50,228 bases of DNA, taken from a virus. Below are positions 6,142-49,607 of the stretch, piece after piece. Location: the IMG/VR virus record IMGVR_UViG_3300037808_001410. One strand, 5' to 3'. Positions within the stretch are counted from its first letter, which is position 1; every line of letters starts with the position of its first letter. The translations under genes were made by a program, and so were the position numbers. The notes under the pieces were generated by a model, which ran no database searches, had not been told where the DNA came from, and worked only from the letters and a program-made list of their open reading frames with translations.

Positions 6142-6171
6142 CCCGTCATAGAGAGGAAAGGCAGTAACCCC

Positions 6172-30405: not shown

Positions 30406-30420
30406 TTTCTCTCCTCGTGT

Positions 30421-30452
30421 AAAAAGGGGGACGGAGCGTTGGCCCCGCCCCC
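30421..30452 (-). terminator. Rho-independent terminator or attenuator after the major capsid gene
   Basis: The minus strand reads GGGGGCGG-loop-CCGTCCCCC (5+3 bp with a 1-nt bulge) followed by TTTTT (30425-30421). Confidence 0.65.
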
Positions 30453-30485
30453 CAAGGGATGCTCTCACCCGAACCCTGACCGAAG

Positions 30486-31481
30486 CTAGACGGTATTTAC
30501 GATGTAGATACCTTCGGGCTTCGTCAGTCCTGCGAGGCAAGTTTCCTCCACCAAGATCCAAGTACCCGCAGGGTCTTCCTCGACCCAGGACTTGGAGAAC
30601 TTGCCGACGGTCCCACCAGCACGGGGGTCCACCGGAGGGGCGACAACCTCGTCACCGACGGTCCCAGGGCCGACGATAATGAAGTGATCGTCCGTGATGA
30701 AGGAGTTCCAGGTCGAGGAGCCGTCGGCCACATGGCCAGCCTCATAGACCTGGATGTCCAGACCCAGGAAACGCTTCAGGTAACCCCACTGGGCAACCTG
30801 ATCCTTGAGGGAGTCGCCCATCAAGGCCTTCACGCCACTGTTCTGGATCAGGTACTTCATGACCGTCTCGGTGCAGTACGCCCGTGTGGGCATGACACCG
30901 TGGTCCTGCATGATGAGCTTCTTGCCGCTGATGATGTCACCGATGATAGAGTCCGACCCCGTTCCGCTCCATGCCGTACCGGCATTGACCTTGTGCGAGG
31001 TAGAGAACCCGAAGTCATAGGTGGCAGAAGCGGTCACAGCGCCATCGGTGATGGAAACCGTGAAGTACCCATTGGTGTCGCCACCATTGAGTAGCTGCCA
31101 CCGCCACCATTCCTTGCGCTGTTCCAGACGCTGGTTCAGTTCCGAGAGTTCATCAGCCAGCATCTGCTTGCCGTACTGCTGATGTTCCGTACCGGGACGG
31201 CGCAGCCAGTTCATGGCGGCACCGGACAGGAGCTTCTTCTCACGGATAGTCGGGATGATGACCGAGGTCTTCTTCTTGGTCATCGGGTTGACCATACCGG
31301 CCTCTGCCTGAGGGTCACGGTACTTGGCCAGATCCCGGCTGTACTCCAGAACGTCGAAGGTGTACTCGTTCGTGGGCGAAGGGACGCCCTGCCGGAAGAG
31401 AGACGCGCCGAGGCCAAAGTCCACTTTGAACTTACGGACCAAAGCGGTCATGGTCTGATGTCGAAGAACTTCGTGCTGCAT
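30486..31481 (-). CDS. Major capsid protein, lambda gpE-like (331 aa)
   Basis: ORF track. AGGAGGG lies upstream. It is colinear with lambda E as I remember it: RKFKVDFGLGASLF / PTNEYTFDVLE / IPTIREKKLL / ...KPEGIYIVNTV. Confidence 0.85.
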   Translation of the reverse strand: MQHEVLRHQTMTALVRKFKVDFGLGASLFRQGVPSPTNEYTFDVLEYSRDLAKYRDPQAEAGMVNPMTKKKTSVIIPTIREKKLLSGAAMNWLRRPGTEHQQYGKQMLADELSELNQRLEQRKEWWRWQLLNGGDTNGYFTVSITDGAVTASATYDFGFSTSHKVNAGTAWSGTGSDSIIGDIISGKKLIMQDHGVMPTRAYCTETVMKYLIQNSGVKALMGDSLKDQVAQWGYLKRFLGLDIQVYEAGHVADGSSTWNSFITDDHFIIVGPGTVGDEVVAPPVDPRAGGTVGKFSKSWVEEDPAGTWILVEETCLAGLTKPEGIYIVNTV

Positions 31482-38259: not shown

Positions 38260-38695
38260 CGATTACCTCGCCATCTTCAGCCCTCTGCTTGTTCATGAAG
38301 GCCTCGAAAGGACTCTTTGGCCCCTCGGCGGCATTCGGGTCGGGAGAGCCGGTGAGGATGTGCTGCAACCGGACATTCTCCTGCATGACCCTGAGGAGTT
38401 GTTCAAGGCTCTTGGCCTCAGGTTTGTCGTTCTGGAGACGCTCAAGGATCTGCCCCTCGATGATCTCGGTCAGCTTCCACCACCGCTCAAACCTCTTGGC
38501 GGTCTCATCGGCCAGGGAGACTACAAGCTGATCCCGGGCAGCGGACATCACCTCATTCCTGAAGGCGTTCTTGTCTTTCACCCGCAGCCTCTGACGGGCC
38601 ATGGGGTAGGACAGGCCCTTCTCTTCAGCGAACTCCTTCACCGAGCCGGTGTAGACATTGAACTCCATCTGGAGGGATGCCCAGTCATTCCCCAT
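38252..38695 (-). CDS. terS: Terminase small subunit (147 aa)
   Basis: ORF track. An N-terminal HTH-like segment (SVKEFAEEKGLSYPMARQRL) is present. It lies immediately upstream of terL and overlaps it by 8 nt. Confidence 0.65.
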   Translation of the reverse strand: MGNDWASLQMEFNVYTGSVKEFAEEKGLSYPMARQRLRVKDKNAFRNEVMSAARDQLVVSLADETAKRFERWWKLTEIIEGQILERLQNDKPEAKSLEQLLRVMQENVRLQHILTGSPDPNAAEGPKSPFEAFMNKQRAEDGEVIDG

Positions 38696-39371
38696 CGCTC
38701 ACCCTCGGGTCCTGCTCGGTAAGGGGTTCCTGGGAAGAATGGACAGCCATAATCTCCAGGGCCTGCCACCTGTTCCCCCTGGTGAGGCCGTAATAGGCGG
38801 CAATCCTGTCCACCTCGGCCTCGATGACAACGGCAGCATCCTTGGGGACAGCCTTCCTGCCCATCAGGGACGCGAGGGTTACCCAGTCATCCTCCTCCCC
38901 CTCACCGGGAAGGGTGATGTCGCGGTTGGCCAATTCATCGAGGTCGATGGAGGCAACGTCGATGATGTTCTCAAGCTGGTCAGCGGTGTAGGGCATGGTC
39001 GAGAGGAGATCCTCAACGTCCAACTCCTTCTTCAGGTTGGCCAGCATCTCAGAGAGGAGGATCGGGTCGGCGTCACCGCGAAGCTCATTCATGGTGATGG
39101 TGAGCCTCTTTGCCGTGGGTTCATCGACATCGATGATCACGACAGGGATCTCCTCATGGCCAAGATCCTTGCAGGCCCTCCACCGATGTTCGCCGTCGAT
39201 GATCTGGTAGGAGTCCTCGCCACCAGGGAGGGGCCTGACCAGGACAGGATCGATCATGCCGAAGCGATTGATCGATTCCTTCTCCTTCTCAAAGACCGGT
39301 GCGCTCATCCTGTTCGGATTCCAGTTGTTTGGAAATAGCCTCTCCATCGATATTGACTCGGTGCGCGGCAT
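38685..39371 (-). CDS. ParB-N-terminal-domain (ParB/Srx) protein (228 aa), possibly DpdB-like
   Basis: ORF track 38685..39542. ATG 39371 lies 6 nt after AGGAGG. The motif is GMIDPVLVRPL...YQIIDGEHRWRACKDLG. It overlaps the dpdA-like 3' end by 83 nt. Confidence 0.75.
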   Translation of the reverse strand: MPRTESISMERLFPNNWNPNRMSAPVFEKEKESINRFGMIDPVLVRPLPGGEDSYQIIDGEHRWRACKDLGHEEIPVVIIDVDEPTAKRLTITMNELRGDADPILLSEMLANLKKELDVEDLLSTMPYTADQLENIIDVASIDLDELANRDITLPGEGEEDDWVTLASLMGRKAVPKDAAVVIEAEVDRIAAYYGLTRGNRWQALEIMAVHSSQEPLTEQDPRVSDGE

Positions 39372-40302
39372 TGGCCAGCCTCCTGTTCCAGATGTTGGTA
39401 ATCTCTCTCTGCATCTCGACGAGATGGCAGATGTTCTCGACGCACAGGGCGTCCTTGTCGGCCCGTCGGCCTGTGATCTTTGCGCCGACATCGTGAGAGA
39501 TGTGGTGCCGCAATTCCCTGAGGTGTCTGGCCTTGGCGGCATCGGTGTTAGAGCCGGCTTTTTCCAGGGTCCTCTTGAGCGACCGGAGGGAATTCTTGGT
39601 GATCATGTACCCATGCCCACCTACACGCGAATCATAGAACTCGCTCTGGCCGAACTTGTCGGTGGTGGTGAAGGCGGTGGTCGAGTCGGCGGTGTCTAGG
39701 TTGGAGGCCTCCATGAGGGGTCGGCGTACCGCAGCGAATCCGTGACATCTCTTCCCGTGCGAATGGACCTGATCAACGAGCCGCCTCCAGAGAGGAGGAT
39801 CAGAGTAGGGAATGTCGCGATTGAACCCCATCCAGTGAATGTCGGGGTGGTTGAGCATGATGTCCCACCCCTTCTGTCCGAGTTCGCGGTGCCATACGAA
39901 GATGCAAGGCCTGCCGCTCTTTTGTTGGTACTGGAACATGAGGGGCCAGACATCCTCGATGATCTTCTGGTTCCCGTAGAGCTTGTAGAGATCAAGATCG
40001 ACGAATCGATCCCATAATGGAGACAGTCTATCGAGGTATCTGAAGTAGGCATCGCAGTAGTCCTCTATGGTTGCATAGGGAAGCTCCAGGCCCCCCTGCG
40101 CGTTGAGGTAGGTGAAGGCCCCGGAATCCACAATGCATTCATCGCCATTGGCCCGGAGCCATGCCCAGTATTTGATGGCCTGGGTGGACTTCCAATAGGC
40201 GAAGGACATGAGGTAGTTGACCTCACCGGGGTACCGCTTCATGACCTCACGCGCCCGACGCATGTGCCCCACCGATGCCGACGCCACGAAGAAGATTTTC
40301 AT
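39289..40302 (-). CDS. dpdA: DpdA-like DNA-guanine transglycosylase (TGT superfamily, 337 aa)
   Basis: ORF track 39289..40392. ATG 40302 overlaps the upstream stop (TGATG). It contains IVDSGAFTYL (compare the TGT motif DSGGFQ) and later LDTADSTT. It sits in an operon with folE/queD/queE/queC. Confidence 0.75.
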   Translation of the reverse strand: MKIFFVASASVGHMRRAREVMKRYPGEVNYLMSFAYWKSTQAIKYWAWLRANGDECIVDSGAFTYLNAQGGLELPYATIEDYCDAYFRYLDRLSPLWDRFVDLDLYKLYGNQKIIEDVWPLMFQYQQKSGRPCIFVWHRELGQKGWDIMLNHPDIHWMGFNRDIPYSDPPLWRRLVDQVHSHGKRCHGFAAVRRPLMEASNLDTADSTTAFTTTDKFGQSEFYDSRVGGHGYMITKNSLRSLKRTLEKAGSNTDAAKARHLRELRHHISHDVGAKITGRRADKDALCVENICHLVEMQREITNIWNRRLANAAHRVNIDGEAISKQLESEQDERTGL

Positions 40303-40865
40303 CAGATCCAATCCCTGCCGGGGGCAAGCGTCTGGGTCTCTGCCATCCATGACCCCTTGGACTCTTTGGGTGTTCTCCAGCCCTTGCCCCACACCAGTTC
40401 ACAGTATTCGACAGCAGGCCACAGCATCGGATAGGTCACACCTTTGAACAGGAACGGATGAACATCGAACAGCCTCGCTGGCAGGGTCTTCTTGCCGTGG
40501 GCATTGAGGTTGAAGATGACGCTGGGGTCGGCAGTAGGCTGGTAGGTGATGATGTCTACGAGGCATCCGTCACGGTGAAAACACTCCTGGTGGGCGCGGT
40601 AGCTACCGTCCTCGATGGTGCCCTCCTTTGGGCCGTCGAGAAACCCTTCGGCGTAAAAGTTCTGCCGTAACACCTTCTTCCATCCCGAGGTGTCACCCTC
40701 CCTTGGCAGGAGGACAGCAAAGTCCAGGTCGGTGTCGGAGGAATGGGGGGCTATCTCGTACTGCCGGTACATGGACAGCAGTTGCCCAGCATAGACAGCA
40801 TAGGGGTAAGGTTGCCTGCTGAGAATGTCATTGGCGACAGCCATGATGTCTTCAGCGTGATCCAT
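40302..40865 (-). CDS. LicD/fukutin-family-like phosphotransferase (187 aa)
   Basis: ORF track 40302..40889 (GTG). ATG 40865 follows AGAGGG. The segment YAGQLLSMYRQYEIAPHSSDTDLDFAVL parallels the LicD motif GTLLGAVR..G.IPWDDDIDV. Confidence 0.55.
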   Translation of the reverse strand: MDHAEDIMAVANDILSRQPYPYAVYAGQLLSMYRQYEIAPHSSDTDLDFAVLLPREGDTSGWKKVLRQNFYAEGFLDGPKEGTIEDGSYRAHQECFHRDGCLVDIITYQPTADPSVIFNLNAHGKKTLPARLFDVHPFLFKGVTYPMLWPAVEYCELVWGKGWRTPKESKGSWMAETQTLAPGRDWI

Positions 40866-40875
40866 GTTCAACCCT

Positions 40876-41292
40876 CTAGGATAACTCACGGAGCCCCTCC
40901 TTGATCTCAGTTGAACAGATGCCCTCGGTGTAGGGGATTGGGATTATCGCCACACCATTGCGGATGCACCACATGATGCCCTTGACTTGTTCGACACCCC
41001 ATGACCCATGGTCGGTGCCGACGAACCTGACATTGATCCCGAGGTCGGCGTAGTCGATCTCATCGAAGGCATTGTGGGTGATGACCGCCCTCACGCAATC
41101 CAGGTGGTTGATGACATCGGCCCTCACCTCGTAGGGCTGCATCGGGTCGCCCTTCTTCTCATGGTGTATCTGGTCTGAGGCTACACCCACATACAGGATG
41201 TCACACATGGAGGCTGCTCTGTGGAGGATGTTCGCGTGACCTGAATGGAAGATGTCGAACGATCCATCTATGTACCCGATTTTCCACTTCAT
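40876..41292 (-). CDS. Cytidylyltransferase-family protein, TagD-like (138 aa)
   Basis: ORF track. The motif is GYIDGSFDIFHSGHANILHRAASMCDILYVGVASD (HxGH nucleotidyltransferase motif). The size matches glycerol-3-phosphate cytidylyltransferases. Confidence 0.8.
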   Translation of the reverse strand: MKWKIGYIDGSFDIFHSGHANILHRAASMCDILYVGVASDQIHHEKKGDPMQPYEVRADVINHLDCVRAVITHNAFDEIDYADLGINVRFVGTDHGSWGVEQVKGIMWCIRNGVAIIPIPYTEGICSTEIKEGLRELS

Positions 41293-42272
41293 TCAGGCAA
41301 CACCCCTTCGATAGCCTGTGAGAATTTCTTGCCAGCTAACCGAACCACTTCAGCGCCCACAGCCACATGGCCCTGATACTCATCGGGATCGAGAGCAGCC
41401 AATAGAGACACAGAACGCGCAAGACCTCTCGCGTCGAGACTTCTGATTCTGCCGGGGTAGTCGTATCCGTAGAGTTCTGGGTAGCAGAGGTCTTCGGGGA
41501 TGGAGGGCAAGGTCCCGCAGAGAAAGGCCTCGGCGGCGACGAGCCCGAAGGTCTCCTTTCTCGATGGAACGGCTGCCACCCTCGCCCCTGCCAAGGCGGT
41601 GTAGTAGGCAGTCCTTGAAGTGAATCTGGCCATTCGGATGTGCGTGTATTTGTTGGCCTCCAGGGCAACATCGTAACCCTTGTCTGCCGACTTCCTCGAT
41701 ACGAAGATTGCGCCATCTTTTTCCTCCAGGGGAACGGGTTCGATGCCGCTGGGCTCGGCAACCGGAATCCCGACAATGGAAATCTTGTCCAGATAAGTTG
41801 CACCGTAAGCAGCATAGAGCAGGTCGCGGTGATATGCGGTGGAAACCCAGATCTCATCCAGGCAATCCAATTGCGCTATGAATGCCCTGTGGTAGCTGGC
41901 AGGGTTAGCAGAATAGGCGTCATGCTCCTCATACGGGCCACCATGGACATACCCAATGAGGCGATGGTTGCCGTTATCGAAGGCCATGATGTTCATGCTC
42001 TGAACATCGGGGAAGAAGATGGTCGCGGTCGGGTACCTCTCGGCGGCAGAGATGCCAAGGGCACAGGCTCTGGCAGCCTTCATGTCCAACTTCTCAAAGA
42101 TGGTCCGGTCCTTACTGTCCCGATCCTCGTAGGCCATGGTGAGCATCCTTGGCCCAAGAATCTCATACATGGTCTTCAGCATGTGAGAGGACCAATTCAT
42201 CGTGCTGTTGTGCTGGGAGACAGCAATAAGGTCAGGCACCTTCGACCTCCGTTCCTGGATAACCAGAGACAT
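41289..42272 (-). CDS. GT-B glycosyltransferase (327 aa)
   Basis: ORF track. The C-terminal signature is PSRKETFGLVAAEAFLCGTLPSIPED. The stop overlaps the next ATG (ATGA). Confidence 0.7.
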   Translation of the reverse strand: MSLVIQERRSKVPDLIAVSQHNSTMNWSSHMLKTMYEILGPRMLTMAYEDRDSKDRTIFEKLDMKAARACALGISAAERYPTATIFFPDVQSMNIMAFDNGNHRLIGYVHGGPYEEHDAYSANPASYHRAFIAQLDCLDEIWVSTAYHRDLLYAAYGATYLDKISIVGIPVAEPSGIEPVPLEEKDGAIFVSRKSADKGYDVALEANKYTHIRMARFTSRTAYYTALAGARVAAVPSRKETFGLVAAEAFLCGTLPSIPEDLCYPELYGYDYPGRIRSLDARGLARSVSLLAALDPDEYQGHVAVGAEVVRLAGKKFSQAIEGVLPE

Positions 42273-42795
42273 ACTCCTCGGGTGGGATGCCGTGACTGCA
42301 TAGGGCCTCGATCACATCATCCTTCGTGGTCCACAGGAGCGGGGTTGTGATCTTCAGGGGGCACAGGGCTGGGTCACGGGCGAGATTCATCGATGTCACC
42401 ATGTTGTCGGCAAAGCTCTTTGAGCAGTCTGGGAAGAGGGCCTGATCGTCCTTGTCGAACCCGACCCAGATCTCGTCGGCCTTGTAATGCTCCGACCATG
42501 AGGCAGCGATGGCCAGGAAGACAGCGTTCCTCCCTGGCACCCAGGCGTCGGACACATTCGGTGATTCGTTCCTCGGCGCATCCCCGGTGAGGGGGTTGGG
42601 TGGCAGGCGTACCTCAACGCAGTCTATGTGAAGCTGGAGCCGGTGAGCGGTCTCAAAGGCCTTCTGCCTCTCCTTCATCTTCTGGCCATAGTCAATATGC
42701 AGGAGACGGATGTCGTCCTTGTCGAAGATCTCTAGGGCTCGGTGCAGCATCAGGCGGGAATCGGCCCCGCCCGAGTACAGGATAATCTTCTTCAT
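42232..42795 (-). CDS. queC: QueC-like PP-loop ATPase (187 aa) lacking the C-terminal Cys cluster
   Basis: ORF track. Motifs are YSGGADS (PP-loop), VPGRN and FPDC. The protein ends before the position where canonical QueC carries its CxxCxxC zinc site. No C-x2-C pair is present in the translation. Confidence 0.75.
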
Positions 42796-43352
42796 TTGGC
42801 CCCCCTTACTAAAGACATAAACTCACCCCTGCCCTCACTCTCCATTAGACATCCCCTGAGAGCAGAGGTGACCATCTCGCTATTCTGTTTCTCTACCCCA
42901 CGCGCCCTCATGCACAGGTGGGAGGCCTCGATCACGACAGCAACGCCTTTCGGATGAAGGACGGTATCGACTGCATCCGCGATCTGGTCTGTGAGCCGCT
43001 CCTGGTTCTGGAGGCGTCTTGCAAATAGATCGACGGCCCGTGCCAGCTTAGAGATGCCGACGATGCGCTTGTCAGGTATGTACCCGACATGGGCCTTGCC
43101 GAAGAAAGGCAGAAGGTGATGTTCGCAGGTAGAGAAAAATTCCACGTCACGCAGGATGACAAGACCATTGTGTCCCTCCGATTCAAAGAAGGTGGAGAGG
43201 ACCTCCTCGGCGCTCTGGCTGTAACCGACGAGAAGGTCTTGCCAAGCCGAAGCAATCCGGCGAGGTGTGTCTGCAAGGCCCTCCCTTTCGGGGTCCTCTC
43301 CGACAGTGAGGCAAAGATGGTGAAACCATGAAGCGTTGAAGTCTATGTTCAT
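42792..43352 (-). CDS. folE: GTP cyclohydrolase I (186 aa)
   Basis: ORF track 42792..43442. ATG 43352 overlaps the queE stop (ATGA). Motifs are TPRRIASAW and [22 protein letters not shown]. Confidence 0.92.
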
Positions 43353-44032
43353 TTCAACCTCAAGAACTTGTGCATCTGGACAGACAGACGCCATGGTGAA
43401 TGGCTCTCCACAAATTGGACGCACCACCTGAGGTTCGGCCAATCGATAAGGTCGCAGCCCTCATCTCCGACACGGGTCCTGTTGGCCTCTGAGAACTTGT
43501 TCATCGGTTGGACAAACCAGCAGTTGCAGGTGAGGACCTCTGGGTATGAGCCCCTGAAGGGTCCGACCCATGGACGTTGCCCCTTGGCCAGGACGATCTT
43601 CACCTCGTCGGGTTTCTGGATGACAACCCTCGCCCCCTTCTTGGGGGACACGGTGACCCAATCGACAATCTTGGCATACTCATGTTCCAGCTTGATTGTG
43701 CCGTTGGTCTCGATGTGGATGTTGAACCCTTCCTTCTTCAGCCTTGCCAGGAGGGGCTTGCAATGCAGGAGGGGTTCGCCGCCGGTCAGGCACACGGTCT
43801 TCGGCCTGGACTTCATCTTCCCTGCGACCCGGAGGTAGCAATCATCGGTCACGTTCTTGATCTCATGGATGATGTCATCCTCGGTCATCATCTCGCCGTC
43901 ACGCCAATCGGTATCACAAAAGATGCAGTCGAGGTTGCACCCGGCGAACCTGACGAAGACAGTTGGGAGGCCCGTGTGCATTCCCTCGCCCTGAACGGAC
44001 AGAAAGATCTCGGTGATCTTGTACGATATCAT
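43349..44032 (-). CDS. queE: 7-carboxy-7-deazaguanine synthase, radical SAM (227 aa)
   Basis: ORF track 43349..44089. ATG 44032 overlaps the upstream stop (ATGA). Motifs are [30 protein letters not shown]. Confidence 0.9.
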
Positions 44033-44661
44033 GGTGACACTCCGTCGAATGGGATTGTGAATCTCTCGGAACCAGGGACGCCACCCCACTTCTTCATGTA
44101 GTGGTCCCTCGGGCCAACCTGCTCTCCACCGGAGGAGGCATTGCGCTTGTGGAAGGGGTCGAGAGACTTTGCATTCCCAACAACCCCCAGCTTTCCCAGC
44201 TTGGCCCTGTAGAGGAAATCCCTGTCCTCGTAATAGGCTGGGAAGAAGGCCACATCAAACTTACCAATCGATTCAAACACCCCGCACTTGAGGGCGAAGG
44301 CACACCAGTGGAAGGGGCCGATCATAAGGTCGGGCTCTCCATTACGGAGAAGCTCCCTCTTGATGTCTTCCGGGTCCTGGCCAAGAACTATGTCATCGTT
44401 CAGGTGGACAACATAGTCGGCCTTGAGGGTGTGGAAGGCGATGTCCGATGCCAGATTCCATGACCCAGCCACGCCGAGATTCCTTCCGGCCTTCACGATC
44501 AGGGTAATGGGCTTCAGGGTCTCCGGGAGGTGGAAGGTCTGCCAGCCGTTATCCACCAGGACCAGTCCAGAGAAGGCGTGGACCCTCTGGGCCAAGTCCT
44601 GAAGGCTTTCGGCCAGGAGGTCAGCACGGATGATTGTTGGGATGGCGAACACCAGCTTCAT
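44029..44661 (-). CDS. GT-A (GT2-like) glycosyltransferase (210 aa)
   Basis: ORF track 44029..44883. ATG 44661 overlaps the queD stop (ATGA). Features are MKLVFAIPTIIRADLL..., VLVDNG..., and HLNDDIVL (DxD-type). Confidence 0.7.
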   Translation of the reverse strand: MKLVFAIPTIIRADLLAESLQDLAQRVHAFSGLVLVDNGWQTFHLPETLKPITLIVKAGRNLGVAGSWNLASDIAFHTLKADYVVHLNDDIVLGQDPEDIKRELLRNGEPDLMIGPFHWCAFALKCGVFESIGKFDVAFFPAYYEDRDFLYRAKLGKLGVVGNAKSLDPFHKRNASSGGEQVGPRDHYMKKWGGVPGSERFTIPFDGVSP

Positions 44662-45140
44662 TTGACCCTCGCCACAGCCTTTGATGTCGGGGTCTCCCAG
44701 AGGGTCACGCCCCTGGGTTTCAAGGAGTGCCGCGCCCAATGGTCCAGGGCCTTCTGGAGAACGTACCGGGAGATGTTCTCGGCGGTGGGCTCCCAGGGGA
44801 CGGTGATGATGCCATAGGCCCCATCGAGGCCACGGATGGCCATAATGGGGTCTTTCTCGTTGAGCATCATCTTGTGGTCCCATGGCTCGATGATGTCCTT
44901 GAGGAAGGCCTTGATCTGGGCGTAATCCACGATCATGCCTGTGCCCTCATCCAGTGGGCCGGTGATGCCAAGCTCGATCTGGTACCGGTGGCCGTGGAGG
45001 TTGTGGCATTTGCCATCGTGATGCATGAGCCGGTGACCCATGTCCCATTCCATCGTCTTGGTGATGTAGATGTAGCCGTCTTGGACGTGCCCATCGAAGG
45101 GTGACGCGATAGTGTGGTCTTCCTTCTTGCCGTTGATCAT
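44658..45140 (-). CDS. queD: 6-carboxy-tetrahydropterin synthase (160 aa)
   Basis: ORF track. The CxxxHGH motif (KCHNLHGHRY) is present. It is coupled to the upstream gene (TGATG). Confidence 0.9.
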   Translation of the reverse strand: MINGKKEDHTIASPFDGHVQDGYIYITKTMEWDMGHRLMHHDGKCHNLHGHRYQIELGITGPLDEGTGMIVDYAQIKAFLKDIIEPWDHKMMLNEKDPIMAIRGLDGAYGIITVPWEPTAENISRYVLQKALDHWARHSLKPRGVTLWETPTSKAVARVK

Positions 45141-46261
45141 CAGAAGATCTCCTTCCAGGCTGCCCTGATCTGCTTGGTCGCGATGGCCGAAGAGTAGGTG
45201 TTTTCGATGATGTTCATATTCTCGATTCCGATCCCCTCCCAGTAGGTGCGGCCTTGATCGATTGCCGATTCGATCCTCAGGGCCAAGGCCTCTGCGCTGG
45301 GGGGATACCAGCTTGCCTTCTCCCAGACCTGCCTTATACCAGACAGCGAATCAATCGCTGGGATTTCGACAGGTTCGGTCGAGGCTGCGAACACCTGTGA
45401 TGCGCTTTGCAGGTTGGCGACGAGCAGTTCCGCGATGCCCGAAGAGTCTGACCCGATAGAGGGTGTGCCCAAGGCCCCGGGCTCAAGAATCGCCTTCGGG
45501 ATGGTGTCGCCATAGGAGGGGTAGAGGTTAACATCGATGGACGCGTAGAACTCCCGAATGCCACCCCTCTCCTTGGTGTTATCCACCGCCGCGAACTCCA
45601 CATTGTCTAGGCCTTCGAACAGCTTCACGGCGTCCTTGAGGCTCTGGGTGGGGGCGTCCGAGAAGGTAGGCCTGAGGCGCAGAACAGCATCACCTGTGTC
45701 GGCCTTACCCCAGGCCTCGGCAAGGACCTTCCAGCCCTTCCGTTCGATCCAGGCACCGGTCATCCCAAAGGTGAAATGCTCGCTTCGACCCTCGTCTACA
45801 CAGCCGAACTTGAAGAACTCGGTGTCCACATGGTTCGGCACCACGAAGATCGGCGCATCCATGACCGGTCGGGCTTGGTTGGCACAATACTCGCTGGTGG
45901 TTATCAGGGCCTTCCACTGGATGTCCTTGAAGAAGGCCTTGAGCATGTCGGCATTGAGAAGCACCTCCCACATCGTCAGCCAGATGGTGGCATGGATGCT
46001 CGCCCCGGCGCTCCAATTGTCCCCGCCAATAAGGACCTGGGCTGGCGAGGCGCACAGCAAGTGCGGGTAGGTGATTTCCTGTGGGCAGGTCATCTTCGCG
46101 TAGGAGAGGTATTGCCGTTCCACCTCCGCATTGTCGCCAGCATTCAACGACTGTGCAGTGACACGGTAGGAGGTCAGATGGTCGAGCAGTTCTCGCCAGT
46201 AGTTGTCGTACCCAGTAGTGCCAAACATGGGTCCGATCAGGTTCGCTTCGAAGGATCGCAT
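45140..46261 (-). CDS. GT-B (group 1) glycosyltransferase (373 aa)
   Basis: ORF track. The signature is YPSYGDTIPKAILEPGALGTPSIGSDSSGIAELLV. It is coupled to the upstream gene (TGATG). Confidence 0.7.
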   Translation of the reverse strand: MRSFEANLIGPMFGTTGYDNYWRELLDHLTSYRVTAQSLNAGDNAEVERQYLSYAKMTCPQEITYPHLLCASPAQVLIGGDNWSAGASIHATIWLTMWEVLLNADMLKAFFKDIQWKALITTSEYCANQARPVMDAPIFVVPNHVDTEFFKFGCVDEGRSEHFTFGMTGAWIERKGWKVLAEAWGKADTGDAVLRLRPTFSDAPTQSLKDAVKLFEGLDNVEFAAVDNTKERGGIREFYASIDVNLYPSYGDTIPKAILEPGALGTPSIGSDSSGIAELLVANLQSASQVFAASTEPVEIPAIDSLSGIRQVWEKASWYPPSAEALALRIESAIDQGRTYWEGIGIENMNIIENTYSSAIATKQIRAAWKEIF

Positions 46262-47160
46262 CAGATCGTCCCCCAGGTATTAGGGTCTGAGAATTCATGC
46301 GGGGCACATTTGGACCAGAAGCCTGCATTGACGTTCTTCTCGGCATAGGCGAGGGCGATCCTCAGGTCCTTCTTGTCGGCAACCATGAGGCAGTCATGGA
46401 AGACATTCTTGAAAGAGGTCCCGATGGGCCAGCCGGTGCCGTCCCTGGTGACCTTGGCCCAGGAGCATCCGTCGGAGGCAATGCCGTAGACCAGGAGGGC
46501 ATCCCCGGCCTTGGCCGACTCGACGTCCTCCCTGGACTTCCATTTGCCGACACTCTCCCAGAGGCGGTAGCCCTTGTCGATGGCAGAGCCGTTGAAGAGG
46601 ATGCCTTCAGCGCCTTTGCCTCGGAGGCCAGCGAGGGCTCTCAGCCATGCATCCATGACGAGCATCTCTTCGGGTCGGTTTGAGCCGAAGGGCCAGACGA
46701 TGGCCTGTTCGTCGGGGTCCAGGCCCCACCACCGGACGTTGGGATCGAAGTCATCGATGAAGAGGCCTCGGCATCCGGCCCAGACCTTTGAATTGAGGAC
46801 GGCGAAGCACATCTCGGCAAACCGTTGGTCGTGGAATTGGTCCATCCGGTACGGGAACTGTCCCTTGTCGGCCCGGACATAGGGGAGGGTCGCGTAGATG
46901 TCGGCGGGGCCAAGCTGCCAGGATGGGTGGTTGTTCTCGGCCACGGTCCTGTAGGAGCAGCCCCAGTAGTCGAGGTAGAGGTAGGTCTTGGCCAGGGTTC
47001 GGGTGAAGGCCTCCGGGCCGTAGGTTCGAAGGAGGTCCATCGAGGATGATCCGGTGACGATCTGCTCGACATTCATCATGCCTTCGAACTGGTCCTGGGT
47101 GATGAGGTTGGGGTCGTAGGAGTTGCCGTAGTAGAAGCCTATGGGTCGGTACATGTTCAT
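46261..47160 (-). CDS. Hypothetical protein, tentatively TIM-barrel glycoside-hydrolase-like (about 299 aa; start at 47160 or 47154)
   Basis: ORF track 46261..47259 (TTG). ATGs at 47160 and 47154 follow GAAGGG. The segment ...GCRGLFIDDFD... is reminiscent of GH114 / GHL-type barrels. This call is weak. Confidence 0.4.
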   Translation of the reverse strand: MNMYRPIGFYYGNSYDPNLITQDQFEGMMNVEQIVTGSSSMDLLRTYGPEAFTRTLAKTYLYLDYWGCSYRTVAENNHPSWQLGPADIYATLPYVRADKGQFPYRMDQFHDQRFAEMCFAVLNSKVWAGCRGLFIDDFDPNVRWWGLDPDEQAIVWPFGSNRPEEMLVMDAWLRALAGLRGKGAEGILFNGSAIDKGYRLWESVGKWKSREDVESAKAGDALLVYGIASDGCSWAKVTRDGTGWPIGTSFKNVFHDCLMVADKKDLRIALAYAEKNVNAGFWSKCAPHEFSDPNTWGTI

Positions 47161-47221
47161 CCCTTCAGGCTGGGGTTCCCCCACACTGTCTTCCTCTCTG
47201 GCACCCATGTCAAACAATTTG

Positions 47222-47251
47222 TTGACAATATTGCCACCTTTTGTGTAACCT
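47222..47251 (+). promoter_or_regulatory. Candidate promoter of the rightward 47274-49607 operon
   Basis: -35 TTGACA (47222-47227), 18-nt spacer, weak -10 TAACCT (47246-47251). It is followed by AAGGAGG and ATG 47274. Confidence 0.35.
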
Positions 47252-47273
47252 CCTGCCAATCAAGGAGGTTAGG

Positions 47274-47537
47274 ATGGCGACGAGCAAGGTTGGTGGTGGT
47301 CCTCAGGGGGACGGGCATTTTCTATCGAGGGGTGAATGCACGGTAGCGATCCGGCAGGTTCTGATCGGGATGCAGGTCACGGGGGTCTCTCCCTATCATC
47401 TTGACGGCGTAGACATGGTTCGGGTTCATTTGACGAGGGAGACCCTGGATCATGAGAAGGCTCCCTTGGGTCCTGGGGCGGCCTACCTGGACTTTGACGC
47501 ACACGGGCTGATGGACCATTTGGAGGGTATGAGATGA
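47274..47537 (+). CDS. Hypothetical protein (87 aa)
   Basis: ORF track 47241..47537. ATG 47274 lies 5 nt after AAGGAGG. Confidence 0.6.
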   Translation: MATSKVGGGPQGDGHFLSRGECTVAIRQVLIGMQVTGVSPYHLDGVDMVRVHLTRETLDHEKAPLGPGAAYLDFDAHGLMDHLEGMR

Positions 47538-48025
47538 GAAATCCGAATCCGTTCTTCGTCTGCCTGATCGGCATCGTGGTGATATTCGCACTGATGCTCA
47601 TAGGCATCGATTGCACACCTGTCCAGCAGGGTGGGTCCTTGCCGGGGATGCCGAAGGAGGTTGTAGACCAGTTGGAGCCTGGGACGATCATCGGCGGGAT
47701 CAGTATGACCGATGAGGAGGCCTGGATCATGGCCTACAACAATGGCTGGGAGGGGTGGCTTCCCGCGAACCCGGACACGAGCTGGTACGAGTGGATGGAC
47801 TATCTTCCCGCGAAGCATGACAGCACCAGCGGCGGGGGCATGTGGATGTGCGAGGAGCGGTCGAGGGGTGCGTGGCCTACGCCTTCCGGCTGTGCGAACT
47901 TCTACATCCTCTGGTCGGTGGAGGGCGCAGACACGACGGGCCATCTCTTGATGATCCGACTCCAGGACAACAAGGCGGTCCCCATCTGGATGCCTCACAT
48001 TGCCCGGGCTTACGGGGGTCCCTGA
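47534..48025 (+). CDS. N-terminally anchored membrane or exported protein (163 aa)
   Basis: ORF track. ATGA coupling. The N-terminal hydrophobic helix is FFVCLIGIVVIFALMLIGI. The ectodomain is Trp-rich. Confidence 0.65.
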   Translation: MRNPNPFFVCLIGIVVIFALMLIGIDCTPVQQGGSLPGMPKEVVDQLEPGTIIGGISMTDEEAWIMAYNNGWEGWLPANPDTSWYEWMDYLPAKHDSTSGGGMWMCEERSRGAWPTPSGCANFYILWSVEGADTTGHLLMIRLQDNKAVPIWMPHIARAYGGP

Positions 48026-48026
48026 T

Positions 48027-48422
48027 TTGGCCTACACGGGCGAGAACCAGTGTCACATCTGTGGAGGGGAGAGGGAGGAATCGAGGCGTGATAAGACCCG
48101 GTGTGAGGATTGTGGGAGGAAGGCAGCCGCTGATTCCAAGGCTTATCGGGCTCGGATTCGGGCGAATGGGAATTACCCGCCTTGGCAATTGGAGAGGGAG
48201 AAGAAGCGGGTTCTTTTGCGTCAGATCAAGGAGTTGACGGGTGAGGTTCGGGTGTTGACGGAGGAGAGGAATCTGTTCCGGGACCTGTATGCGGGGGTCC
48301 GGGACGGGTACTGGGAGCGGGAGCATCGGAAGGCCTGGAGGCACATTGATGACCTTGAGGCAGAGATTTCAGAACTGAAACCTGGAGGCGAGGATTCCCA
48401 GCCCACCAAGGAGGAAGCATGA
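48027..48422 (+). CDS. Zinc-ribbon plus coiled-coil protein (about 131 aa; TTG start at 48027 or 48000)
   Basis: ORF track 48000..48422. There is no in-frame ATG. Features are CHICGG...CEDCGRK followed by a heptad-like helix (LLRQIKELTGEVRVLTEERNLFRDL). Confidence 0.5.
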   Translation: MAYTGENQCHICGGEREESRRDKTRCEDCGRKAAADSKAYRARIRANGNYPPWQLEREKKRVLLRQIKELTGEVRVLTEERNLFRDLYAGVRDGYWEREHRKAWRHIDDLEAEISELKPGGEDSQPTKEEA

Positions 48423-48628
48423 GCGACCAAGAGCAGATCACAATGAGCCGTGATGCCCTGCTGTGTGTCTTATGGAGCCTCTGCCTGTCCGACCATATGG
48501 GCGATGTCTGGGATAGCATCGGCCCCCTAACGAAGCTGCTGGACCTGCCGCAGTACTTGGGGGGTGGCGAGTTGCTCGACGAGATGAAGCTCCGGGACTT
48601 GATCCCCGAATACCAGAGGGAGGACTGA
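48419..48628 (+). CDS. Hypothetical protein (69 aa)
   Basis: ORF track. ATGA coupling at 48419-48422. Confidence 0.55.
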   Translation: MSDQEQITMSRDALLCVLWSLCLSDHMGDVWDSIGPLTKLLDLPQYLGGGELLDEMKLRDLIPEYQRED

Positions 48629-48630
48629 TT

Positions 48631-49287
48631 GTGACCCTACTCAAGCCAAACCAGTCACCGCCCGACAACGCAGTGGATTATGTGAAGACGAGCGAGGGAT
48701 TCAGGGGCGGGCTCTACCTGGACGCGGAGGGCTACCCCACTATCGGGTACGGGTGCAGGGTGAGTGACTTGCCGTTTCCGCTGCTGGACAACGCAATGGA
48801 TGACCTTGACGGTTCTGGCGACTGGCTCCCCGAACCCGTAGCCGCCTACTGGCTCCAGCACAGGCTAGAGCAGTGCGTCACTCAGGCCATGGATGACATC
48901 GGGCCTGAAGCGTGGAGGGCGATGGACAGCCCTAGCATCGCGGAGATGCGGAGGTCGCACCTACAGGAGTTCGGCACAGCGTACCCGTGCAATCTCGATG
49001 ATGAGGTGGTTGACGCCTCCCCTCGCCAGACAGCAGTGATGGACTTCAACTACCACAACGGGAGCATGGTCAACTTCCCCGGCCTCAAGGCTGCGATAGC
49101 GGAGCAGGACTGGGAGAGGGCAGCGAAAAACCTGCGCTTTGCCAATGCCCGCTGTGGTGGTGCCGATGACCCGCTCCGCATTATCTCGTCCAGGGAAACC
49201 GCCTACTACACCAAGCACACCAAGAGGGCAGAGCGCAACATGTGGTGCCTGAGAACTGGAGCCTTCCCACCGGAGGAGATGTGGTGA
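48631..49287 (+). CDS. GH24 (T4/lambda-type) lysozyme, endolysin candidate (218 aa)
   Basis: ORF track. GTG 48631 follows AGGGAGGA. The catalytic pattern SEGFRGGLYLDAEGYPTIGYG gives E..D..T spacing as in T4 lysozyme. Confidence 0.85.
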   Translation: MTLLKPNQSPPDNAVDYVKTSEGFRGGLYLDAEGYPTIGYGCRVSDLPFPLLDNAMDDLDGSGDWLPEPVAAYWLQHRLEQCVTQAMDDIGPEAWRAMDSPSIAEMRRSHLQEFGTAYPCNLDDEVVDASPRQTAVMDFNYHNGSMVNFPGLKAAIAEQDWERAAKNLRFANARCGGADDPLRIISSRETAYYTKHTKRAERNMWCLRTGAFPPEEMW

Positions 49288-49607
49288 TCCACTATCACGG
49301 CACACCATGCGGCGGGTCTGGGGTCGATGCGGCGAAGTTTCTGCAAGGTCGCCACGCTCTTATCTCGTTCCAGGCACCACAAGACCTCGCCATCGCCGCC
49401 GAAGTGTGCCAGTCTTTCTGTCTCGACAGCGGGGCGTATACAGTCTGGAGGCAGGGGGGGTTGCTGGCCAAGATGCTGAGAGAGGGAAACATCGGCTTCA
49501 TCAAGTACCCGGAAGAGGGGCCGGAATGGCATGAGCCGAGGATCGCAAAGATGGAGAAGGTCGAAGGAGGCTGGGCCTTCCGAGTGATCTATCCGTACCT
49601 GGATTAG
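49281..49607 (+). CDS. Short DpdA-N-terminal-like protein (108 aa), possibly a truncated paralogue
   Basis: ORF track 49242..49607. GTG 49281/49284 follows GGAGGAG. The sequence VVIHYHGTPCGG...ALISFQAP...CLDSGAYTVWRQGG parallels KIFFVASASVGH...YLMSFAYW...IVDSGAFTYLNAQGG of the 39289..40302 protein. Confidence 0.45.
   Translation: MVIHYHGTPCGGSGVDAAKFLQGRHALISFQAPQDLAIAAEVCQSFCLDSGAYTVWRQGGLLAKMLREGNIGFIKYPEEGPEWHEPRIAKMEKVEGGWAFRVIYPYLD

Follow-up and report, generated by a model that had tools for sequence, protein, structure and literature searches.

A phage 7-deazaguanine gene cluster containing a candidate deazaguanine glycosyltransferase

Bacterial DpdA, which exchanges guanine in DNA for a 7-deazaguanine, requires the ParB-like ATPase DpdB (PMC10164549). 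Among phages, an unidentified G modification was reported for PA5oct DNA (PMC12191111), and dpdL and dpdA of ACP17 alone failed to reconstitute dDG (PMC10516641); the proposed product of DpdL is unsubstituted 7-deazaguanine. QueC-family enzymes can couple the precursor 7-carboxy-7-deazaguanine (CDG) to other molecules, namely proteins for Cap9 and QatC and amino acids for RoyL. In huimycin biosynthesis, the glycosyltransferase HuiG acts on the 2-amino group of the free 7-deazaguanine base. Huimycin-family clusters carry PF13439 glycosyltransferases, and secondary-metabolite deazapurine clusters characteristically lack dpdA. We found no report of a sugar-bearing deazaguanine base in DNA in the literature searched. 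Here we analyze a window of 50,228 nucleotides from the IMG/VR virus record IMGVR_UViG_3300037808_001410, in which deazaguanine genes are interleaved with sugar genes. We give a probability of about 50% to the reading that a complete phage module for 7-deazaguanine modification of DNA, with its own dedicated glycosyltransferase built in, is encoded in this region.

Deazaguanine genes in a tightly packed cluster

The ORF listing and start-codon analysis place twelve consecutive, co-directional genes on the minus strand at 38685-47259, in the order proposed by the initial annotation. The range given there (39289-47160) omits the ParB-like gene that it lists itself (38685-39371). Neighboring genes share 1-nt overlaps of the TGATG type at 46261, 45140 and 40302, and 4-nt ATGA overlaps at 44658, 44029, 43349, 42792 and 41289, so the eight start/stop overlaps described earlier were all recovered in a junction test. 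They had also served as an argument for translational coupling of the sugar enzymes with the deazapurine operon, and this argument is weak: the overlaps are moderately enriched (8/12 cluster junctions versus 7/26 in the adjacent structural region) and join functionally unrelated genes. Thus, they indicate tight operon packing and not a common function.

The cluster proteins were searched against Pfam, PHROGs and NCBIfam profiles, and some also against the PDB and GenBank phages. The labels FolE, QueD, QueE, QueC-like, cytidylyltransferase-like, ParB_N and two GT-B glycosyltransferases were borne out by these profiles. QueD (44658-45140; 6-carboxytetrahydropterin synthase) matches PTPS at 1e-30 and TIGR03367 at 1.7e-25, the latter at cutoff, and has the CxxxHGH-type motif. 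QueE (43349-44032; the radical SAM 7-carboxy-7-deazaguanine synthase) contains CNLDCIFC and matches TIGR04508 (1.6e-38) and phrog_2076 (7e-37), and FolE (42792-43352; GTP cyclohydrolase I) matches PF01227 at 2e-68. The prediction that FolE, QueD and QueE together make CDG is well supported by these matches.

The next gene encodes a 187-residue QueC variant without the zinc motif (42232-42795; QueC profile, 1.3e-30), whose alignment to 3BL5 is confined to residues 5-165. In 4/4 copies from the window clade, the protein ends at ~187 residues with GYPGTE and lacks the C(x)8CxxCxxC motif seen in BCD7 QueC. Compared with the reference QueC motifs (PMC13329287), SGGADS, VPGRN and FPDC are kept and YGQKMKER replaces YxQxHxxE. 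This variant is probably not a canonical preQ0 synthase. It would instead turn CDG into another product, most simply the amide ADG, or alternatively an amide with another amine; RoyL-type QueC homologs, which form amides with other amines, offer a possible parallel.

The DpdA-type DNA-guanine transglycosylase (39289-40302) has no match in Pfam, NCBIfam or PHROGs, and its assignment comes from a family profile, catalytic motifs and a fold match. Its 630 relatives share the invariant residues D59-S-G, D104, H187 and D206. When the family profile was compared with the PDB, the sole match was DpdA (7UI4), in which DCGAF (Asp95/Phe99) pairs with DSGAF of the window protein (within VDSGAF) and Asp256 pairs with D206. 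The presence of both catalytic aspartates is thus well supported by the alignment. The AF2 model is a TIM barrel (pLDDT 85), its Foldseek matches in BFVD are phage proteins annotated as queuine tRNA-ribosyltransferases (E down to 7e-14, TM 0.65-0.75), and tblastn ties the gene to annotated phage DpdA/TGT genes. The earlier DpdA-like label therefore stands on the fold search and the catalytic-motif alignment. Overlapping the end of dpdA is the ParB_N-domain gene (38685-39371; ParB_N, 1.6e-15), which carries the GxxR-type motif IDGEHRWRA and is kept in all clade members; a ParB-like gene likewise adjoins DpdA in phiFN37. The ParB-fold protein is probably a DpdB-like NTPase helper of DpdA.

A glycosyltransferase family beside deazaguanine genes

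Between QueC and DpdA lies GT-B2 (41289-42272, alternative GTG start at 42239), a GT4-like glycosyltransferase with the motif ETFGLVAAEA that matches Glycos_transf_1 (1.2e-6) and GT4-conflict (2.8e-5). The four clade lineages all have it in this position (31-43% identity). Since the clade comprises only ~4 lineages, the shared gene order could reflect common descent. Outside the clade, the GT-B2 family adjoins deazaguanine genes in 10/10 independent phage groups examined (PA5oct, ACP17, Phosso, BUDD, BCSR5, PhiXhv-12 and four IMG/VR lineages), which include the cultured phages PA5oct, ACP17, BUDD, Phosso and BCSR5. At nine loci, QueE/FolE-type genes lie no more than ~9 kb from the glycosyltransferase (PA5oct, ACP17, Phosso, BUDD, BCSR5, L096, L097, L098/L099 and L100). 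At the tenth locus, PhiXhv-12, a Gat-QueC gene lies two genes away. In 8/9 distant loci, a scan with the fam3 HMM showed the glycosyltransferase directly adjoining a TGT/DpdA-type gene. Signs of the TGT-like identity are a Pfam TGT match at 1.2e-5, a GDSGGYQ motif and an hhalign alignment with the window DpdA family (83% probability, E = 9e-6); the BUDD gene is annotated as a queuine tRNA-ribosyltransferase. The distant modules sit among DNA polymerase, clamp-loader and primase genes and not among structural genes. No GT-B2 homolog was found in phiPsal1, S-CBS4, TJE1 or ~75 TerL relatives without dpdA, and the matches include no phage whose deazaguanine DNA is chemically known and sugar-free.

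Family invariants are R193, K198, G243 and E248, together with W27, D89, H110 and D118 in the N-domain, and the donor-binding residues R193, K198 and E248 are unchanged across 13 members. These comparisons give good support to GT-B2 as a GT4-like enzyme that uses NDP-sugars and whose relatives accompany DpdA-type genes in many unrelated phages, and guilt by association argues strongly that it acts in the deazaguanine pathway. HuiG provides a precedent for glycosylation of a 7-deazaguanine base, and GT-B2 is a candidate deazaguanine glycosyltransferase. The modified G of PA5oct and the failed dDG reconstitution with ACP17 genes are in keeping with this. The distant lineages carry DpdL and no QueC, whereas the window clade carries the QueC variant, so a common handle at C7 is not obvious. 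The sugar might be accepted by N2 or by a carboxyl or amide group, or might go somewhere other than the base. Variable sugar-tailoring genes accompany GT-B2 in the distant loci, and the radical-SAM/SPASM gene of L100 has a homolog among the inserts of clade member L003.

Two sets of sugar genes

The initial annotation assigned all sugar genes to one set acting on deazaguanine. The neighborhoods above favor this for GT-B2, and a different picture emerged for the GT-A-like glycosyltransferase (44029-44661). Its label was borne out by phrog_29879 ("galactosyl transferase", 4.6e-13) and GlfT1 (1e-4), with no significant match in Pfam (best, Glycos_transf_2, E = 0.12). L002 and L004 have one or two GT-A copies in the corresponding place. 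Homologs in phiPsal1 (29%, 1.7e-12) and S-CBS4 form contiguous cassettes with a capsid-type GT-B and a methyltransferase beside capsid/portal genes, in genomes without que or dpdA genes, and the methyltransferase of L004 is homologous to that of these cassettes. The window has a GT-B of this type itself (29098-30561, minus strand; Glyco_trans_1_4, 2.5e-7), whose true start is probably downstream of 30561. The major capsid gene (30486-31481; Phage_cap_E, 3e-34) is its immediate upstream neighbor, an arrangement kept in L002 and L004, where the GT-B is 52-55% identical, and homologs occur in phiPsal1, S-CBS4 and TJE1. At least part of the sugar set thus probably has another target. Based on these cassettes, GT-A more likely acts on virion proteins with the capsid-adjacent GT-B, as does the L004 methyltransferase. 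GT-A and this methyltransferase may be found in the operon only because the region upstream of the terminase genes is a hot spot for accessory genes. Since the sugar genes split into two sets, the original interpretation is supported in part.

GT-B1 (45140-46261; Glyco_trans_1_4, 1.1e-8; phrog_2170, 9e-12) is GT4-like and has no homologs in the relatives or distant modules. The HxGH nucleotidyltransferase (40876-41292; motif FHSGH; CTP_transf_like, 6.8e-15) is cytidylyl/adenylyltransferase-like and nearer to rfaE_dom_II (5.5e-17) than to TagD (2e-12), all below equivalog cutoffs. It is a clade-variable insert missing from L002, L003 and L004, and probably activates a sugar-phosphate or alcohol-phosphate. 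Two proteins, g01 and g10, had been labeled TIM-barrel hydrolase-like and LicD-like, and neither label found support: both proteins lack matches in Pfam, PHROGs, NCBIfam, GenBank phages and the PDB, the last searched with single sequences or family profiles. The g01 gene (46261-47208, start at 47208 or 47160) matched only itself among 5.8 billion proteins. It aligns end to end, at 23-26% identity, with cluster ORFs of L002 (5973-6806) and L004 (6146-6940) and shares the motifs GxxxDD...RWW, NG, RxWE and GD with them, which makes it a conserved cluster member within the clade. The g10 gene (40302-40889, start at 40889 GTG or 40865 ATG) contains DTDLD and has three homologs only. The L008 copy shares 79% identity, against 99% for the neighboring DpdA and ParB; judged from this comparison, g10 is a fast-evolving insert. 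The suggested transfer of phospho-alcohol units by LicD/TagD-like enzymes depends on an unconfirmed label for g10 and on the nucleotidyltransferase, to which no substrate can be assigned.

Competing readings and a proposed pathway

Virion glycosylation by phage glycosyltransferases is documented, and, in the manner of the mycobacteriophages Che8 and Corndog, all glycosyltransferases here, GT-B2 and the capsid-adjacent GT-B included, might act on virion proteins. In that case, que and dpdA would separately give unglycosylated deazaguanine DNA, and the two gene sets would be interleaved only because both collected in the accessory stretch ahead of the terminase genes. The phiPsal1/S-CBS4 cassettes, the retained capsid-type GT-B, start/stop overlaps that are common genome-wide, and a TJE1 sugar-gene cluster upstream of terminase (no que genes in the first 16 kb examined) are consistent with this. 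The initial annotation had raised the same alternative, which we favor for the GT-A subset. For GT-B2 the evidence is contrary: ten unrelated phage groups keep its family beside DpdA-type/que genes in their replication modules, and it has no homolog in phiPsal1, S-CBS4, TJE1 or the TerL relatives without dpdA; the new sugar genes of the clade were also inserted inside the que cluster and not beside the capsid GT. As an account of the whole set, we consider it unlikely. Still less probable is that the sugar genes alter the host envelope (LPS, teichoic acid or capsule), thereby masking receptors or excluding superinfecting phages, and share nothing but a transcript with the DNA-modification genes. 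Phage glycosyltransferases are well known to modify glycans on the host surface, cyanophage papers interpret many in this way, the nucleotidyltransferase resembles RfaE domain II and TagD, and L004 and L002 have a weak GT9 heptosyltransferase-like ORF. Yet profile searches found no membrane or lipid-carrier-associated domain in any of the glycosyltransferases, the operon is late and terminase-proximal instead of in a lysogenic-conversion position, and the GT-B2/DpdA adjacency would be left unexplained; we regard this possibility as remote.

GT-B2 could also serve the deazaguanine pathway off the DNA, as in huimycin/dapiramicin chemistry, by glycosylating the free base or nucleoside, or DpdA or another protein, leaving virion DNA sugar-free. 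HuiG and the attachment of CDG by Cap9, QatC and RoyL are compatible with this, as is the acidic nature of GT-B2 (pI 5.8); T4 beta-glucosyltransferase is basic. The module always has or adjoins a DNA transglycosylase and replication genes, however, and deazapurine metabolite clusters characteristically do without dpdA. A TGT-type pocket would moreover accept a base poorly if it were glycosylated at N2 or N9, as we infer from PMC10164549. We therefore hold this reading to be improbable.

In the module with a dedicated glycosyltransferase, which we prefer, DpdA would swap guanine in double-stranded phage DNA for the base made by the QueC variant, and GT-B2 would use a nucleotide-sugar to glycosylate the deazaguanine once inserted, much as T4 beta-glucosyltransferase does on 5-hydroxymethylcytosine. 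Variable genes around GT-B2 would make, tailor or extend the sugar: in the window, the nucleotidyltransferase, g10 and perhaps GT-B1 and g01; elsewhere, radical-SAM/SPASM proteins, GT2, oxidoreductases or an LmbE-type deacetylase. The product is probably a sugar-bearing deazaguanine; the links between these steps all come from gene neighborhood. As GT-B2 adjoins the same kind of gene in ten unrelated phage groups, sugars on a deazaguanine base may occur. If so, this would be a DNA modification never described in the literature searched, and it would provide these phages with DNA glycans that differ between strains and block restriction as well as other defenses aimed at DNA.

Organization of the cluster and its close relatives

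The window resembles an almost complete phage genome, about 50 kb in size. Profile scans identified genes for terminase, a Mu-type portal, an E-type major capsid protein, tape measure, Rad52-like, SSB and replication-O-like proteins, and no close relative was found among the GenBank phages searched. The cluster consists of twelve consecutive minus-strand genes running from 47259 down to 38685, with terS/terL directly downstream in the same direction. The eight start/stop overlaps listed in the initial annotation are all present; they are 1 nt long at 46261, 45140 and 40302 and 4 nt long at 44658, 44029, 43349, 42792 and 41289. Overlapping junctions make up 8/12 in the cluster versus 7/26 in the structural region. 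Since such overlaps are common elsewhere in the genome, they mark a compact operon structure, not a shared pathway, and translational coupling was rejected as a sign of shared function. A short plus-strand block (47534-49607), divergent from the cluster, is probably the lysis region; one of its proteins, of 218 aa, matches the phage-lysozyme N-terminus only weakly (E = 1e-3).

Profile searches bore out the assignments of QueD, QueE, FolE, a QueC-family protein and a ParB N-terminal-domain protein, and placed the two GT-B enzymes of the cluster, GT-B1 (45140-46261) and GT-B2 (41289-42272), as GT4-like. GT-A (44029-44661) matched PHROGs and, weakly, GlfT1 only. The HxGH protein, proposed to be a cytidylyltransferase, belongs to the nucleotidyltransferase family, and is slightly nearer to heptose-1-phosphate adenylyltransferase than to glycerol-3-phosphate cytidylyltransferase. 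The labels "TIM-barrel hydrolase-like" for g01 (46261-47208) and "LicD-like" for g10 (40302-40889) found no support in any library or profile searched. Neither protein matched Pfam (even at E <= 5), PHROGs, NCBIfam, the PDB (as single sequences, as a 3-member profile for g01 and as a profile for g10) or phage sequences by tblastn. An invariant D52-x-D54-L-D56 motif is present in g10 and is not diagnostic of LicD (PF04991). GT-B1 as a query in the viral scan returned nothing.

The searches recovered four lineages related to the window: L008, which is almost identical to it; L003, with DpdA at 79%; and L002 and L004/L005, with DpdA at 64%. Throughout this clade, GT-B2 is placed between QueC and DpdA, and one or two copies of GT-A separate QueD from QueE. 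L002 and L004 also have a g01-like gene. The accessory genes are the nucleotidyltransferase, g10 and GT-B1 in the window, a radical-SAM/SPASM enzyme and a GT2 in L003, and a SAM methyltransferase, a second GT-A and a weak GT9-like ORF in L004. L008 and the window are 99% identical in DpdA and ParB and only 79% identical in g10 (L008 72-635 versus window 40302-40889), implying that this insert evolves or recombines much faster than its neighbors. The accessory gene just upstream of dpdA is a site of sharp local divergence or a recombination hot spot. Another metagenomic fragment (L007, 642-2023) encodes a g10 homolog (52% identity) and, after it, an unknown ORF of 241 aa and a radical-SAM/SPASM protein of 219 aa; g10 is therefore also associated with radical-SAM genes.

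The deazaguanine core

The DpdA-like protein of the window has no match in Pfam, NCBIfam or PHROGs, and a Pfam scan of 80 members of its family returned no TGT match. The family comprises 630 distant relatives in which D59-S-G, D104, H187 and D206 are invariant. Its profile has a sole PDB match, the bacterial DpdA structure 7UI4, which is weak (E = 0.064). In this alignment, the family-invariant D59 and F63 (DSGAF) fall on DCGAF (Asp95/Phe99), and D206 falls on the aspartate of SIDSTT, the nucleophile Asp256. The two aligned aspartates are 161 residues apart in the chain, the same as the published Asp95-Asp256 spacing. In Salmonella DpdA, Asp95 is the general acid/base, Phe99 stacks and Asp256 is the nucleophile (PMC10164549). 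An AlphaFold2 (AF2) model built from only four close sequences was poor (pLDDT 57), and we used a model from an 80-sequence alignment (pLDDT 85.4, pTM 0.83), in which alternating beta/alpha elements form a predicted TGT-type (beta/alpha)8 TIM barrel. A Foldseek search of this model against the PDB returned generic TIM barrels only, with TGT/DpdA absent from the top 50. The BFVD search returned phage "queuine tRNA-ribosyltransferase" proteins (E 7e-14 to 1e-7, TM 0.5-0.75), and the viral structure library was decisive for the fold identity of the predicted model. Taken together, the family invariants, the 7UI4 alignment, the TIM-barrel model and the viral fold matches uphold the DpdA-like label. 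Metagenome contigs scanned with the DpdA clade alignment yielded nothing. The 80 loci of TerL relatives contained no further dpdA or GT homologs, and hence no decoupled case was found among them.

The ParB_N protein (match 1.6e-15) has an IDGEHRWRA motif, of the GxxR type; its gene runs into the dpdA stop and is conserved throughout the clade. Bacterial DpdA needs DpdB, a ParB-like ATPase (PMC10164549). From this requirement and the overlap with the end of dpdA, the ParB-fold gene is probably part of the DpdA system, in a candidate DpdB-ATPase role. The resemblance to the bacterial Dpd restriction-modification system (DpdA/DpdB/DpdC; PMC10164549) lies in a TGT-fold DpdA with Asp95/Asp256 equivalents and in a ParB-fold protein adjoining it that could act as DpdB. 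However, DpdC and the restriction components (DpdD-K) are absent here, and the ParB_N candidate is 228 aa long. In Fusobacterium phage phiFN37 (OR492271; 7348-9657), DpdA directly follows a ParB-like gene and precedes a queuosine-precursor (YhhQ-type) transporter. This locus is a salvage-type DpdA system and a second phage instance of ParB-DpdA adjacency.

The QueC copies of the clade (window 42232-42795, minus strand; L002 8393-8959; L003 354-914; L004 8393-8962) are about 187 aa long and end in GYPGTE. The window protein retains the SGGxDS, VPxRN and YPDC motifs as an SGGADS P-loop, VPGRN and FPDC; E. coli QueC Y131F partly keeps its activity (PMC13329287). The signature of preQ0 synthases includes a full YxQxHxxE motif and a zinc motif with the essential Tyr189 (PMC13329287). 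All four clade QueCs lack the C(x)8CxxCxxC zinc motif, or any cysteine cluster, whereas BCD7 QueC has the motif. Met also replaces the His of YxQxHxxE in all of them, and the window sequence reads YGQKMKER, with the Glu displaced. With the zinc motif and the His/Glu pair missing, it should not be filed as a canonical preQ0 synthase (PF06508 cluster 1). The divergent QueC homologs RoyL, Cap9 and QatC make amides, not nitriles (PMC13329287), and the phage variant QueC* is the proposed maker of ADG, the 7-amido-type base. For the window protein, an ADG synthase of the QueC* kind and an amide ligase are both candidate identities, and the motif loss, together with the amide-making homologs, implies that the base inserted in this phage is probably not preQ0. 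In L004 alone, an 83-aa Cys-rich ORF (8176-8427, seven Cys, CxxC) lies between FolE and QueC and could be a detached zinc module.

The GT-B2 family and the capsid-linked sugar genes

The first distant relative of GT-B2 was gp167 of the Pseudomonas jumbo phage PA5oct (NC_071039), a full-length homolog in the replication region, five genes from QueE (gp162). PA5oct DNA is restriction-resistant at G-containing sites, and an unidentified deazaguanine-type modified G has been proposed, in a paper whose available portions name only QueE and PTPS (PMC12191111). Two neighboring genes annotated as hypothetical are gp168 (7097-8719), a TGT-like protein of the neighbor-protein cluster fam3 (HMM 1e-148), and gp166 (9865-10242), which is DpdL-like with the variant motif LGYPHFHYF. 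Scanning viral contigs with a broadened GT-B2 alignment retrieved four independent large contigs, with QueD, QueE and FolE 1-9 kb upstream of the GT in 4/4. Using one of these GTs in tblastn, we found the family in cultured ACP17, Phosso, BUDD/X1, BCSR5 and PhiXhv-12-like phages, in each of which the GT-B2 homolog adjoins deazaguanine genes. 

Clustering of the neighbors defined a conserved distant module of FolE, QueD, QueE, DpdL (signature LxxxHRHxF), a variable insert, GT-B2 and a TGT-like protein. The latter is 400-540 aa long, matches Pfam TGT (1.2e-5), contains a GDSGGYQ motif and aligns with the window DpdA family in hhalign at 83% probability (E = 9e-6); in BUDD its gene is annotated as queuine tRNA-ribosyltransferase. 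The GT directly adjoins this TGT-like gene in 8/9 distant loci. DpdL itself was rejected as the GT family, since it is a QueD paralog and equals fam1, another of the neighbor clusters. The variable inserts encode sugar-tailoring enzymes, such as a GFO/IDH/MocA oxidoreductase, another GT1 and a Zn-dependent dehydrogenase, and a radical-SAM/SPASM insert in one distant module is homologous to that of clade member L003. In PhiXhv-12 (PV764601), the gene at 5618-7141 annotated as "L-glutamine-D-fructose-6-phosphate aminotransferase" (GlmS) is really a Gat-QueC fusion with an intact zinc motif, followed by an LmbE/BshB-type deacetylase (7138-7746) and the GT-B2-family GT (7749-8852). This GT4-deacetylase pair recalls bacillithiol/mycothiol synthesis and, by analogy, hints at a sugar converted from GlcNAc to GlcN. 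The distant modules are set among DNA polymerase, clamp-loader and primase genes. At three IMG/VR loci (L097 12947-15514, L096 1509-4145 and L100 12947-15751), a DNA polymerase A with an N-terminal uracil-DNA-glycosylase domain lies beside the deazaguanine/GT module; these genes fit the recently described UDG-PolA fusion subfamily (bioRxiv 2025).

The 13 members of the GT-B2 family all keep R193, K198, G243 and E248, which bind the donor, and have an acidic residue at position 240. The N-terminal domain, otherwise unique, has four invariant residues, W27, D89, H110 and D118. The family sequences contain the GT4-type C-terminal Rossmann domain, E-x7-E and the Arg/Lys diphosphate-binding pair. 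Glycos_transf_1 matches 8/13 members and GT4-conflict 5/13. The solved relatives are GT4/GT5 enzymes only (WlaC/PglH best), matched in the donor domain alone. Phages with chemically characterized, sugar-free deazaguanine DNA (CP220, phiST, 9g, CAjan and others) are absent from the GT-B2 tblastn matches.

The initial annotation treated the sugar genes as one deazaguanine set, and offered glycosylation of virion proteins as the alternative. The adjacency of GT-B2 to que genes and DpdA supports the former for this enzyme. For GT-A, the L004 methyltransferase and a fourth GT-B (29098-30561, minus strand), immediately downstream of the major capsid gene (30486-31481, minus strand), virion glycosylation is the better and more likely reading. 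The capsid-adjacent GT-B is kept at 52-55% identity in L002 and L004. In the Pontimonas phage phiPsal1, the gene order is major capsid, GT-B homolog, SAM methyltransferase, GT2 (the GT-A homolog) and neck protein, and the Synechococcus phage S-CBS4 has the same trio between portal and protease/capsid genes. The capsid GT matches its homologs at 6e-34 (S-CBS4) and 7e-9 (phiPsal1), with 28-31% identity, and GT-A matches those of phiPsal1 and S-CBS4 at E = 1.7e-12 and 9e-9. The cassette methyltransferases are 34-37% identical to that in the L004 que cluster (E about 1e-30); this gene is found in L004/L005 only (5e-30, 9e-34) and is absent from the window. Neither phiPsal1 nor S-CBS4 has a que or dpdA gene by annotation and HMM and BLAST scans, and GT-B2 homologs were not found in such que-less cassette phages. 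This places GT-A and the methyltransferase in a sugar system that is independent of deazaguanine and physically tied to head genes. However, the cassette is not contiguous in the window, where only the GT-B lies by the capsid gene and GT-A is 13.5 kb off, between QueD and QueE.

Virion glycosylation by phage-encoded enzymes is on record in mycobacteriophages, and the window resembles Che8 (gp110) and Corndog (gp38) in encoding a set of GTs (Freeman 2023, cited through PMC12363180 and PMC11256854). Sequence similarity between the window and mycobacteriophage GTs was not detectable. The S-CBS4/phiPsal1-type cassettes also include methyltransferases, and in the window a GT comes immediately after the major capsid gene. 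In the Tetrasphaera phage TJE1 (NC_019930; 5388-10731), genes for a nucleotidyltransferase, a guanylate kinase, an NDP-sugar epimerase, a methyltransferase and a capsid-GT homolog form a sugar cluster that precedes terS/terL, as the window cluster does, and no que genes are annotated within the first 16 kb of this phage. The capsid-GT homologs of phiPsal1, S-CBS4 and TJE1 are accompanied by GT-A, methyltransferase or sugar-nucleotide genes. This suggests that capsid glycosylation may occur outside mycobacteriophages, and the split capsid-type cassette suggests that virion glycosylation may reach well beyond them.

Precedents and a candidate glycosylated purine

The cluster is a mosaic of a deazaguanine core plus sugar genes. 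By homology, FolE, QueD, QueE, the QueC variant, DpdA and the ParB/DpdB-like protein make up a predicted deazaguanine DNA-modification module, and GT-B2 appears to be its dedicated, widely conserved GT4-like partner. Known phage deazaguanine systems comprise DpdA1-4 and FolE/QueD/QueE/QueC, plus DpdL, DpdM, DpdN and QueC* (Hutinet 2019 PMC6884629; Cui 2023 PMC10516641). Like them, the window encodes in one operon the enzymes of base synthesis and a DpdA-type transglycosylase whose catalytic aspartates are conserved, and the distant GT-B2 lineages resemble phiST and ACP17 in having DpdL and a DpdA3-like TGT. It differs in the motifs missing from its QueC, and in that none of the eight known phage deazaguanine derivatives bears a sugar and no GT has been assigned to those systems. 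The expected base was not obtained with ACP17 dpdL plus dpdA, which led to the suggestion that further enzymes may take part (Cui 2023, PMC10516641). The ACP17 GT (gp124), which sits between dpdL (gp125) and the DpdA3-like gene (gp123), is not considered in these accounts of phage deazaguanine systems.

Glycosylation of 5-hydroxymethylpyrimidines, by the T4 alpha/beta-glucosyltransferases or the TET/5mYOX- and ThyS-associated GT-A and GT-B enzymes (bioRxiv 10.1101/2023.12.21.572611), provides a second comparison. There too, a base-modifying enzyme is clustered with one or more GTs, and epimerases, second GTs and ParB-like genes are frequent companions. Modification follows replication, with a handle placed first and glycans added after, and the tailoring genes vary between relatives. 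However, the handle in those systems is a pyrimidine hydroxymethyl group, and the partner in the window is a purine-exchange enzyme. Neither a thymidylate-synthase-like hydroxymethylase nor a TET was found among the window ORFs scanned, and glycosylation of another base was rejected on this ground; no sequence relationship between GT-B2 and T4 BGT was detectable.

The huimycin/dapiramicin clusters (HuiG GT, HuiC methyltransferase, preQ0; PMC7439116; bioRxiv 10.64898/2026.04.15.718813) likewise combine a preQ0/CDG (7-carboxy-type deazaguanine) pathway with a GT and a SAM methyltransferase. HuiG is a biochemical precedent for a GT with a 7-deazaguanine base as acceptor (PMC7439116). The GTs of the huimycin-family clusters belong to PF13439. 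Unlike the phage cluster, these are bacterial secondary-metabolite clusters that act on a free O6-methylated base, characteristically without dpdA.

In vertebrate tRNA, mannosyl-queuosine and galactosyl-queuosine are made by one GT-B and one GT-A enzyme, with the cyclopentenediol of queuosine as the acceptor. As a candidate only, the phage system would share with these a sugar on a 7-deazaguanine derivative in nucleic acid. There are no QueA, QueG or QueH genes in the window and hence no cyclopentenediol acceptor.

Enzyme identities, conserved catalytic and donor-binding residues and repeated gene adjacency are shown, and from these we infer the acceptor, the sugar and the outcome at the DNA level. 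Judged by its recurrent genomic context, GT-B2 very probably acts in the deazaguanine pathway. Whether virion DNA carries a sugar-decorated deazaguanine is close to an even call. In the most economical mechanism, DpdA would insert a deazaguanine base into DNA, GT-B2 would next glycosylate the inserted base and the neighboring variable genes would supply or tailor the sugar. GT-B1, the nucleotidyltransferase, g10 and g01 could each belong either to this module or to the probable virion-glycosylation set. Candidate acceptor sites are N2 (as in huimycin), the C7 carboxyl or amide, and direct C-glycosylation; a common C7 functional group is not evident, since the distant lineages have DpdL without QueC and the clade has the QueC variant. 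We assign a probability of roughly 45% to the reading that GT-B2 is the first family of DNA deazaguanine glycosyltransferases. The siphovirus-like window phage, PA5oct, ACP17 (Acidovorax), BUDD (Xanthomonas) and Phosso (Sinorhizobium) would then exchange guanine for a 7-deazaguanine that is subsequently glycosylated, the sugar being diversified by lineage-specific tailoring enzymes (nucleotidyltransferase, radical-SAM/SPASM, oxidoreductases, deacetylase and extra GTs).

The literature searched places DNA glycosylation on pyrimidines only (5hmC, 5hmU and base J), and contains no GT tied to deazaguanine DNA and no report of a glycosylated deazaguanine. The conserved GT-DpdA pairing would surprise specialists. 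With GT-B2, the ACP17/phiST-type pathway gains a specific candidate for its missing "unknown enzyme". The comparison also carries the problem from a metagenomic phage that is uncultured over to cultured ones open to analysis now, in which the identity of the PA5oct modified G and the missing ACP17-type step become directly testable. If GT-B2 does glycosylate deazaguanine in DNA, this would account for both the PA5oct modification and the failed ACP17 reconstitution. There would be consequences for how such phages are sequenced and cloned, among them Pseudomonas and Xanthomonas phages considered for therapy or biocontrol, and for enzymatic tools for site-selective purine labeling. Glycosylated 7-deazaguanine would then represent a new kind of hypermodified purine, the equivalent among purines of T-even 5hmC glucosylation, and would bear on the evasion of restriction enzymes, CRISPR and glycosylase-based defenses, and on modified-G-sensing nucleases of the type IV and END types.
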